Below the pieces are notes generated by a model, which was given only the letters and a program-made list of their open reading frames with translations, made no database searches and was not told where the DNA came from. Below, piece after piece: positions 10,964 to 11,109 of a DNA stretch of 64,000 nt (within the stretch, counting starts at the first letter, position 1; every line of letters begins with the position of its first letter). The DNA comes from Escherichia phage ev_rybdy3. The stretch lies in sequence record PQ819470.1. One strand, given 5' to 3'. Position numbers and translations under genes: made by a program.

Positions 10964-11109
10964 TACAGGTATAGCTTATGGGACTCAGTAATGCAGAGTC
11001 TACGGTAAAGCAGTCGCCCGTGGTCGAATGACCGTATGCCCATTGGATGCATTCCTTTGGTGATGGCTAGGGAGTCCGAGCGTAGGTTCGAATCCTACAC
11101 CTGTAACCA
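10964..11109 (+). ncRNA. tRNA-like element (canonical tRNA 3-prime half, distant 5-prime acceptor strand)
   Basis: GTAGG-TTCGAAT-CCTAC T-arm + ACCTGTA + ACCA at 11082-11109; exact complement TACAGGT at 10964-10970. Confidence 0.3.

Follow-up and report, generated by a model that had tools for sequence, protein, structure and literature searches.

The 64,000-nucleotide (nt) stretch of DNA analyzed here (hereafter the window; Escherichia phage ev_rybdy3, sequence record PQ819470.1) comes from a Kuravirus-type Escherichia coli podophage and carries, on its plus strand at positions 10964-11109, a 146-nt element with the ends of a transfer RNA (tRNA). Comparison with homologues indicates that the element is a tRNA-derived cloverleaf with two insertions and that it is most likely a non-decoding tRNA look-alike. 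With rather better than even confidence, the locus is read as the gene for a tRNA-derived, non-decoding structured RNA that would act as a tRNA mimic, which among the options listed in a preliminary description of the locus is the one nearest to this conclusion. No Rfam family matches the element, and no paper on it or its family was found in the literature.

The tRNA-like ends are evident in the raw sequence. A 7-bp acceptor stem, a 5-bp T arm with its T-loop, a discriminator base and CCA are present as in a tRNA, and the T arm, variable loop, 3′ acceptor strand, discriminator A, CCA, and the upstream TACAGGT and GACTC all lie where the preliminary description had placed them. A motif scan of both strands for a 5-bp T stem, the T-loop consensus, a 7-bp acceptor within 260 nt, and CCA returned two sites only in the window, namely the element and tRNA-Arg(TCT) at 9093-9168, which is the only conventional tRNA found there. 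First-order Markov resampling of the window (300 resamples) gave 0.017 sites on average, with any site at all in 5 of the 300. ARAGORN and Rfam had been proposed earlier as checks. ARAGORN called no tRNA in the interval by default and, in intron mode, a tRNA-Val(tac) with a 49-nt intron; Rfam returned nothing at gathering thresholds (29 bits for the tRNA model, RF00005), and under permissive settings the tRNA model gave only a local match of 14.8 bits to the T arm (11078-11098).

Covariation among homologues supports the fold. With element position 1 set at window position 10964, the seven sequence variants of the 146-nt group are all exactly 146 nt long, and they show compensatory double changes at 6:137 in the acceptor stem, at 20:36 in a hairpin of the D-loop (H1), and at 84:90 in the tip of a long hairpin (H4). 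Pair 6:137 is G-C in the window and A-U in the copies from Efbeekayvirus (Klebsiella phages), pair 20:36 changes from A-U to G-C in phages FH3 and XT32 while 18:38 alternates between G-U and A-U, and pair 84:90 changes from A-U to G-C in XT32. The acceptor complementarity, which might have proved fortuitous, is thus not coincidental, as compensatory changes across homologues keep the pairing; more distant homologues, such as those of Sugarlandvirus, have entirely different stems that still pair fully. GACTC (10982-10986), previously paired with the distal GAGTC at 11072-11076, has its real partner in the proximal GAGTC at 10996-11000, because the U36C change accompanying A20G is explained only by that pairing. 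Wobble would allow the distal combination, but covariation and the homology-based cloverleaf give both strands other partners. The distal GAGTC had been correctly identified as an anticodon-stem strand, and its true partner is GTCGC at 11013-11017. An additional helix proposed by RNAalifold (H2, 39-42 with 55-58) was rejected, as it clashes with the D-stem and the anticodon-type stem of the relatives and its column 40 varies between C, T, and A.

A covariance model built from the 146-nt copies (R1) matched a 77-nt tRNA-shaped gene of Vibrio phage 1.088.O with 33.9 bits, aligning the body and skipping two blocks. This gene reads GGTTACT-AT-AGCTT-ATGGTAGGTA-AAGC-A-GTCGC-CCCTGTG-GAGTC-CGTGC-GAAGGTTCGAATCCTTC-AGTAACC-A, and ARAGORN folds it as a cloverleaf with U.U and G.A mismatches in the anticodon stem. 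The element is collinear with it once two blocks are added, H1 (20 nt, separating ATG from (A)CGGTA in the D-loop) and a further block of about 47 nt that enlarges the anticodon loop. In an alignment of 12 sequences comprising 146-nt copies and uninterrupted relatives (A7), the gap blocks occupy element columns 21-40 and 57-103, and the shared body TAGCTTATG..GGTAAAGCAGTCGCCC....GGAGTCCGTGC is identical and collinear between acceptor and T stems that covary, which places the element with the uninterrupted genes. The cloverleaf leaves 91.5% of the cells of A7 paired, compared with approximately 38% when the partners are slid. Eleven pairs have changed on both sides, among them six of the seven acceptor pairs and three of the five T-stem pairs, and none of 500 shuffles reached the observed covariation score. 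Compensation accounts for most of the stem changes. No substitution falls within the 34 nt of body that the element has in common with its marine relatives, and 17 variable columns lie elsewhere (P = 0.011 if changes were uniform); an invariant body was rejected as a family-wide rule, as it is true of the window lineage and its marine relatives, while the D-stem and anticodon-type stem of Sugarlandvirus homologues covary. Deletion of both blocks in silico made default ARAGORN call a 79-nt cloverleaf tRNA, and deletion of one block gave no default call. The interruption suspected in the preliminary description was therefore borne out in kind, but instead of a single insert of about 80 nt there are about 67 nt split between the D-loop (20) and the anticodon loop (about 47).

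The uninterrupted relatives occur in about 26 Vibrio phages of the Nahant collection in the marine N4-like phages pYD6-A, VBP47, and VBP32, and also in the K476 group and in D479. The copies of pYD6-A (PYDG_01002) and VBP47 (VPNG_01002) bear the RefSeq label tRNA-OTHER and a pseudogene flag. These marine genes share with the element the D-arm, the base at position 26, the mismatched GUCGC/GAGUC stem, the variable loop, the T-loop, and the 3-nt connector, with covarying acceptor and T stems, but they are 77-80 nt long, lack both insertions, have the loop CC[CU][UC]GUG, and belong to phages of marine hosts. At the level of sequence, these alignments show that the family descends from, or shares ancestry with, the uninterrupted 77-nt tRNA-OTHER genes of marine phages.

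Along the plus strand, the 5′ acceptor strand TACAGGT (10964-10970) pairs 7/7 with ACCTGTA (11099-11105), closing over 135 nt. The connector A-U-A (10971-10973) has 3 nt instead of the usual 2, its U and final A corresponding to tRNA U8 and A9; columns 9-10 are invariant in the 12 sequences of A7, and the 3-nt connector is common to the uninterrupted relatives. The D-stem is formed by GCTT (10974-10977) and AAGC (11008-11011), a pairing that is invariant in A7 and replaced by ACTC/GAGT in phage VAC51. The D-loop (10978-11007) measures 30 nt, compared with about 7-11 nt in tRNAs, and holds insertion 1, the hairpin H1 GGACTC-AGTAATGCA-GAGTCT (10981-11001), which is a gap in the uninterrupted relatives. 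In its 3′ part, ACGGTA (11002-11007), the GG at 11004-11005 corresponds to G18G19 and the A at 11007 to A21; GGTA is invariant in A7, and position 11003 varies between C, T, and A, as for an unpaired base. A D-arm exists where none could previously be fitted, in the form of the conserved GCTT/AAGC stem and the G18G19 equivalent, although with this enlarged, hairpin-bearing loop.

After A11012, which corresponds to tRNA position 26, the 5′ strand of the "anticodon" stem, GTCGCCC (11013-11019), pairs with GGGAGTC (11070-11076), which contains the distal GAGTC, as G-C, U.U, C-G, G.A, C-G, C-G, C-G. In place of the anticodon loop lies insertion 2 (11020-11066, about 47 nt), the other gap block of the relatives, with the hairpin H3 GGTC-GAAT-GACC (11022-11033) and the long hairpin H4 (11035-11065; tip GGA-TGCAT-TCC), which together make a three-way junction of 54 nt. 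The 5-nt variable loop CGAGC (11077-11081) is CGTGC in the relatives (column 116, A or T). It is followed by the T arm GTAGG-TTCGAAT-CCTAC (11082-11098), to which the Rfam local match belongs and in which three of the five stem pairs are compensated, and, after the 3′ acceptor strand, by the discriminator A (11106) and the encoded CCA (11107-11109). The loops of H1 (AUGCA, 10991-10995) and H4 (UGCAU, 11048-11052) are perfectly complementary and invariant in the seven variants, with a chance probability of 0.016 by loop shuffling and 0.005 for random loops, so a loop-loop contact is possible in the window lineage. In the Sugarlandvirus lineage only 3 contiguous bp could form, which is not significant, and because this lineage gives no support the contact is treated only as a lead.

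The features needed for decoding, a 5-bp anticodon stem, a 7-nt loop, U33, and a conserved anticodon, are not seen in the element, where the loop has 54 nt and the stem two mismatches. In the uninterrupted relatives, the loop CC[CU][UC]GUG places C at position 33 and U at position 37, and the would-be anticodon varies (CUG, UUG, UCG, CCG) on identical bodies. The pYD6-A copy scores 21.7 bits with the Rfam tRNA model, for which the threshold is 29.

Homologues with the same two expansions form a wider family, delimited here as tRNA cloverleaves of 134-146 nt with a hairpin between ATG and (C)ACGG in the D-loop and, in the anticodon loop, a hairpin-containing insert with TTGGA...GGT(G)A..(C/G)TA. 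The window element has this design, and doubly expanded homologues of 134-146 nt occur in Kuravirus, Efbeekayvirus, Sugarlandvirus, and Novosibvirus, most of them inside tRNA arrays at 3-7 nt from the adjoining tRNAs and none with an RNA annotation. A variable-gap scan of IMG/VR with the D-arm motif identified a 135-nt element in two contigs matching the T5-like Klebsiella phages IME260 and Sugarland, with a hairpin at the same D-loop site, a T arm, CCA, and an expanded anticodon loop ending in GGTGATCTCTAG (in the window, GGTGATGGCTAG). It lies 7 nt after tRNA-Phe, and the Sugarlandvirus copies are found between tRNA-Phe or tRNA-Leu and tRNA-Pro. By BLAST, the 135-nt element is present in 68 Demerecviridae genomes (Sugarlandvirus and Proteus phage PM135), none of which annotates it as RNA; a "hypothetical protein" is often placed over it instead.

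Six lineages were parsed segment by segment and checked against the sequences, and all helices proved complementary except the PM135 acceptor. The acceptor strand occurs as TACAGGT, TACAGAT, AGTATCA, and AGTATCG, each with its exact complement, the D-stem as GCTT/AAGC and ACTC/GAGT, and the T stem as GTAGG/CCTAC and GTTGG/CCAAC. The D-loop hairpin is GGACTC/GAGTCT, AGGCTA/GAGCCT (one A.G mismatch), GAGC/GCTC, GAAC/GTTC, or CTAC/GTAG, the last three belonging to Sugarlandvirus and Novosibvirus. The "anticodon" stem is GTCGCCC/GGGAGTC or, fully paired in Sugarlandvirus, GCTGGCC/GGTTAGC, and the inner hairpin of insertion 2 is CAGAC/GTCTG or CAGGC/GCTTG, a covariation within the Sugarlandvirus and Novosibvirus homologues; the motifs TTGGA and GGTGAT..CTA of this insertion are common to the window, Sugarlandvirus, and Novosibvirus. 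These alternative complementary versions indicate a structured RNA under selection, with both expansions as part of a conserved design. The PM135 homologue (approximately 771-945 of the retrieved stretch) departs from the pattern in its 5′ acceptor strand, which is mismatched. Its T arm and 3′ acceptor strand (GTAGGTTCAAATCCTACATCAGAGACCA) duplicate the 3′ end of the preceding tRNA-like gene, and an HNH homing endonuclease gene lies just upstream; from these repeats, it looks like the product of recombination between adjoining array genes.

BLAST with the 146-nt element retrieved 12 phage records that cover at least 80% of it, ten from kuraviruses and two from Klebsiella phages, the Efbeekayvirus members HS106 and GADU21 (Schitoviridae; 93-95% identity). 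In the latter two, the element sits 3 nt after tRNA-Tyr and 6 nt before tRNA-Ser(TGA), and the homology between the window and Efbeekayvirus stops within about 4 nt of the RNA ends. Further copies are held by one Efbeekayvirus-like IMG/VR contig and three metagenome contigs. Scans of IMG/VR with five patterns gave nearly all chance matches besides that contig and two Sugarlandvirus genomes. No copies were found in 5,426 E. coli genomes, and two exact patterns were absent from 185,579 species-representative bacterial and archaeal genomes; a captured host tRNA fragment or attachment site was accordingly rejected. Its boundaries and carriers indicate that the element is a discrete, horizontally exchanged unit.

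Some observations weigh against the tRNA-mimic reading. The element is dispensable, as of 141 kuravirus-like records only 10 cover its region. Several copies look damaged, with two H1 mismatches and a change of CCA to TCA in one from a metagenomic kuravirus, a disrupted H1 pair and a C at T-loop position 55 in XT32, a terminal TCA in VAC51, and a non-complementary acceptor in PM135. Kuravirus copies diverge by 3.4% compared with 3.8%, and by 7.5% compared with 11.5%, at the third codon positions of the neighboring gene, so that their divergence is not greatly below that of those positions. The stability of the single-sequence fold is unremarkable (z = -1.37), and neither the phage window nor E. 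coli genomes yielded an antisense target. The metagenomic variant is seen in the kuravirus contigs CYGL01003271 (724-869) and CYGL01000744, where G18T and T22C break H1 and TCA replaces CCA; either decay of the copy or an assembly error may be the cause.

On such grounds the element could be a relic, that is, a pseudogene of a tRNA array that has acquired insertions and is carried along by phage recombination, and a decayed tRNA was among the options of the preliminary description. Most kuraviruses lack the element, some copies are damaged (the TCA ends, the broken acceptor of PM135, the H1 mismatches), and the substitution rate is near that of synonymous sites. Moreover, N4-like tRNA regions contain many degenerate tRNA-like pieces, and RefSeq flags the marine relatives as tRNA-OTHER pseudogenes. 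A relic is nevertheless unlikely, given compensatory changes in all helices, both insertions included, across three phage families and four genera. The length is constant in the seven variants, the 34-nt body is unchanged, and about 80 genomes keep the element at tRNA-like spacing inside arrays; a few copies do look damaged.

It is quite improbable that the gene is an intron-containing tRNA, from which some phage or host activity would remove the block of about 47 nt post-transcriptionally to leave a functional tRNA, possibly an amber suppressor. The intron call of ARAGORN in the window has a counterpart in Sugarlandvirus, whose homologue is called as tRNA(cta) with a 55-nt intron. CTA stands directly 5′ of the 3′ stem strand in both, and in Sugarlandvirus the CTCTAGG that precedes this strand would make a canonical loop with U33 and anticodon CUA; the in silico deletion in the window leaves the loop CCCTAGG. 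Inserts of 37-60 nt are found in the anticodon loops of at least five tRNAs of Vibrio phage D479, and "enigmatic" tRNA introns have been described in Lak megaphages (PMC6784885). A spliced tRNA is kept as a minority rival because of the insert site, the CTA beside the stem, and these insert-bearing phage tRNAs elsewhere.

Several points speak against such a tRNA. Neither a group I intron (Intron_gpI) nor any other Rfam family matched 10700-11300 up to E = 10. Group I introns in anticodon loops, with their P3-P9 core, are usually longer than 200 nt, compared with about 47 nt for the insert, and E. coli is not known to have a tRNA splicing endonuclease. Splicing would leave the D-loop hairpin in place, and ARAGORN rejects such a product. 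The tRNA-Val(tac) call itself was discarded, as its intron model relies on a junk D-stem, puts the third anticodon base on the column that varies between C, T, and A, and takes no account of the covarying H1 and H4. The triplet next to the stem also varies, being CTA in the window and Sugarlandvirus but GTA in PM135, position 33 would be G or C in the window copy and not U, and the uninterrupted relatives have neither canonical loops nor a conserved "anticodon". Compensatory evolution of the inserted hairpins fits a role in the mature RNA. The intron option of the preliminary description, taken as a spliced sequence, is thus not supported.

The fold might instead serve only as "tRNA punctuation", recruiting ribonuclease (RNase) P and RNase E and so shaping the 5′ end or the stability of the downstream messenger RNA (11138-11449), with the RNA itself as a by-product. 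In kuraviruses the element does lie in a 5′ untranslated region, 28 nt before a start codon with no terminator between, and the Shine-Dalgarno context there is the same as in phage SU10 despite the insertion. The Efbeekayvirus and Sugarlandvirus copies, however, lie between tRNA genes and not before a coding sequence, and a minihelix or an ordinary tRNA would suffice for recruitment, leaving the conserved, covarying expansions without explanation; this reading is very unlikely. A transfer-messenger RNA (tmRNA) was not supported, as ARAGORN in tmRNA mode at a lowered threshold and Rfam both found none and the 3:70 pair is C:G, not G:U; a protein-coding reading was rejected, with only open reading frames (ORFs) of at most 43 amino acids within 10599-11137, and an antisense regulator was rejected, since the best complementarities in the window reach 11-13 nt (E 0.1-1.7), including 11 nt to tRNA-Arg at 9136-9146. 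The latter stretch, TGGTTACAGGT in the variable loop and T stem of tRNA-Arg, is the perfect complement of ACCTGTAACCA at the 3′ end of the element (11099-11109), a match (11 nt, E = 1.7) that is probably due to chance.

For the favored tRNA mimic, the following course can be proposed. The element would be transcribed together with the surrounding plus-strand early genes, and RNase P would cleave 5′ of U10964, recognizing the 12-bp stack of acceptor and T arm, the U at -1, and ACCA. A minihelix plus RCCA suffices as an RNase P substrate, and the stack, U at -1, and ACCA of the element presumably suit the needs of the enzyme. RNase E and 3′ exonucleases would trim the 3′ end to CCA. E. coli tRNA precursors are reported to be cut by RNase E just 3′ of CCA and then by RNase P (PMC2190699). 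The equivalents of U8, A14, G18G19, and A21 would form a tRNA elbow with the T-loop, from which H1 would project, and the tRNA-like ends and elbow would stabilize the RNA. H3 and H4 would take the place of the anticodon loop; since no anticodon loop is left, the RNA would be a tRNA mimic and not a translation adaptor. It might engage a tRNA-binding factor of the host or the phage, as ligand, sponge, or decoy, or it might be a scaffold displaying the two inserted hairpins. Host defenses directed at tRNA exist (e.g., PMC13096335), and a decoy for such defenses would be an attractive role. As a precedent, Bacillus cereus has a "tRNA-Other" that is not used in translation and is reported to have a regulatory role (PMC3399842).

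Somewhat more speculatively, and with only a modest chance of being correct, the family may represent an undescribed class of phage noncoding RNAs in which hairpins of the D-loop and anticodon loop co-evolve, and which would move as cassettes between tRNA arrays in unrelated phages. They might serve as decoys or sponges against host defenses that target tRNA, or as cofactors of a phage enzyme. As part of the same proposal, the complementary H1 and H4 loops could kiss and lock a compact fold. In a more radical variant, a new, protein-dependent excision of short inserts from phage tRNAs would make them functional, possibly UAG-reading.

Compared with canonical tRNA (RF00005), the element shares the 7-bp acceptor, the D-stem, the equivalents of U8, A14, G18G19, and A21, the 5-nt variable loop, the TTCGAAT T arm, A73, CCA, and array placement and spacing, but it differs in its 30-nt D-loop with a hairpin, the 54-nt three-way junction, the U.U and G.A mismatches, the 3-nt connector, and the lack of an anticodon. 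The closest functional analogue is T4 species 1 RNA (RNAC), a stable 139-nt RNA in a phage tRNA cluster, which has spacers of the CCA-AAT type and a T-arm-like hairpin, CCGGGTTCGAATCCCGG, near its 3′ end. In T4 rnaC (2909-3047, on the minus strand of the retrieved stretch), CCGGGTTCGAATCCCGG lies 9 nt from the annotated 3′ end, and tRNA-Arg, rnaD, and rnaC are separated by CCA-AAT spacers resembling the flanks of the window element. In contrast to the element, a clean 7-bp acceptor or an encoded CCA was not found in RNAC, and its internal structure is unrelated. Homology to rnaC or rnaD was rejected, as blastn-short gave matches to the T-loop only (12-17 nt, E at least 0.1). The role of RNAC is still unknown (PMC3014915, PMC9697503).

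The insert-bearing tRNAs of Lak megaphages (PMC6784885) and of D479 likewise are array genes with 37-60 extra nt in the anticodon loop, but they have canonical flanks, well-paired anticodon stems, good Rfam scores, and no insertion in the D-loop. At least five such tRNAs, otherwise canonical, lie at 577-2011 of D479, and two of them score 59.6 and 44.4 bits with Rfam. A hairpin of the GNRA type recurs in their inserts, with a motif resembling GTNNCNGCAAC after it. One of these inserts and H1 (GGACTCAGTAATG) share GGATTCAGTAATG, with a local alignment p of 0.002 before correction for five tests. The tRNA-like domain of tmRNA also combines acceptor, T arm, and CCA with another RNA in place of the anticodon arm. 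The element differs from it in having no G3:U70, tag frame, or pseudoknot series, in its length (146 vs. about 360 nt), and in its real D-stem. In engineered "tRNA scaffold" RNAs, cargo replaces the anticodon arm for stable expression in E. coli. These scaffolds share their design logic with the element, using tRNA ends and elbow for processing and stability and foreign hairpins instead of the anticodon loop, whereas the element is natural and has a second insertion in the D-loop.

The adjoining genes are all on the plus strand, and the element lies at the 3′ end of a non-coding stretch of about 540 nt (10599-11137), in which no coding ORF of more than 43 amino acids is wholly contained. Over the 501 bases around the element, identity is 100% with Escherichia phage ev_rybdy8 and 99-100% with ShigP1, PGN6866, and KM01. 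The kuraviruses SU10 and O18-011 lack the segment of about 180 nt (10934-11115) that holds the element in the window. Directly downstream lies the gene of a 103-amino-acid helix-turn-helix (HTH) protein (11138-11449). Its product is annotated as "endonuclease" in ev_rybdy8 and as "transcriptional regulator, D5-like" in other records; it matches sigma-70 region 4 and HTH profiles and PHROG 323 (E = 1e-28), and HNH endonuclease PHROGs match it only weakly. The plus strand showed no promoter-like site, and no terminator-like site was detected in or beside the element, the nearest such hairpins being at 10395-10422 and 11306-11325.

Further RNA modules lie upstream of the element. A structured RNA of about 77 nt, "Module B" (10852-10928), is closed by a stem of GGAGAGTACATTAGCT with AGCTAGTGTACTCCCC and shows compensatory changes across Kuravirus, Suseptimavirus, Gamaleyavirus, and Kaypoctavirus, with no Rfam match. 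A pseudoknot of GGCC 10887-10890 with GGCC 10905-10908 is possible within it. In phage KP8, Module B follows tRNA-Leu after a 9-nt spacer, and in Shigella phage pSb-1 its closing stem surrounds a different interior of 97 nt. The region 10600-10850 is hairpin-rich, non-coding, and conserved in kuraviruses, with 78-85% identity to tRNA-region DNA of N4-like Gamaleyavirus (e.g., Mimir124). From these similarities, the non-coding island of 540 nt appears as a whole to be an assembly of RNA modules that both phage groups have in common; it is unannotated in all records.

Gamaleyavirus and Kaypoctavirus also carry an unannotated 124-nt tRNA-like element (1121-1244 of each retrieved stretch of PhAPEC5 and KP8, and in five further stretches). 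It has a compensated 7-bp acceptor (TACCAGT vs. TACTGGT), a linker that ends in ATGG and leads to a hairpin, and then a T arm with ACCA, and its interior is unrelated to that of the window element. Membership in the same family was rejected, as R1 gives only 25-30 bits, below the relative of ordinary length; because that relative scores higher and the similarity is confined to the acceptor and T ends, the 124-nt element is treated as separate. A 66-67-nt non-canonical tRNA-like gene, TCCGGTG...CGCCGGAACCA, is present in phage N4 (1256-1321) and at 1053-1118 and 1387-1453 of the PhAPEC5 and KP8 stretches. It is preceded by the leader AAAAACAGATGGAGCCAGGTGGAATCCCTGGCAA, which also precedes the 146-nt element in FH3, XT32, and the metagenomic copies. 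The shared leader suggests cassette exchange at exact RNA-gene boundaries.

Phage tRNA clusters, usually read as sets for codon supply or anti-defense, thus also carry conserved, exchanged RNAs that standard tRNA finders and Rfam miss. The carriers number about 80 or more sequenced phages of three families with Escherichia, Shigella, Klebsiella, and Proteus hosts. Several are candidates for phage therapy, and in their records the locus is blank or overlaid with spurious "hypothetical protein" ORFs. For the T4 species 1 and 2 RNAs, a puzzle for 50 years, the family offers tractable, clearly structured relatives, and its natural presence or absence among near-identical kuraviruses, such as the window phage and SU10, makes a test of function straightforward. 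Should the RNA prove to be a decoy for tRNA-directed immunity, or to follow a new splicing route, it would represent a new mechanism.

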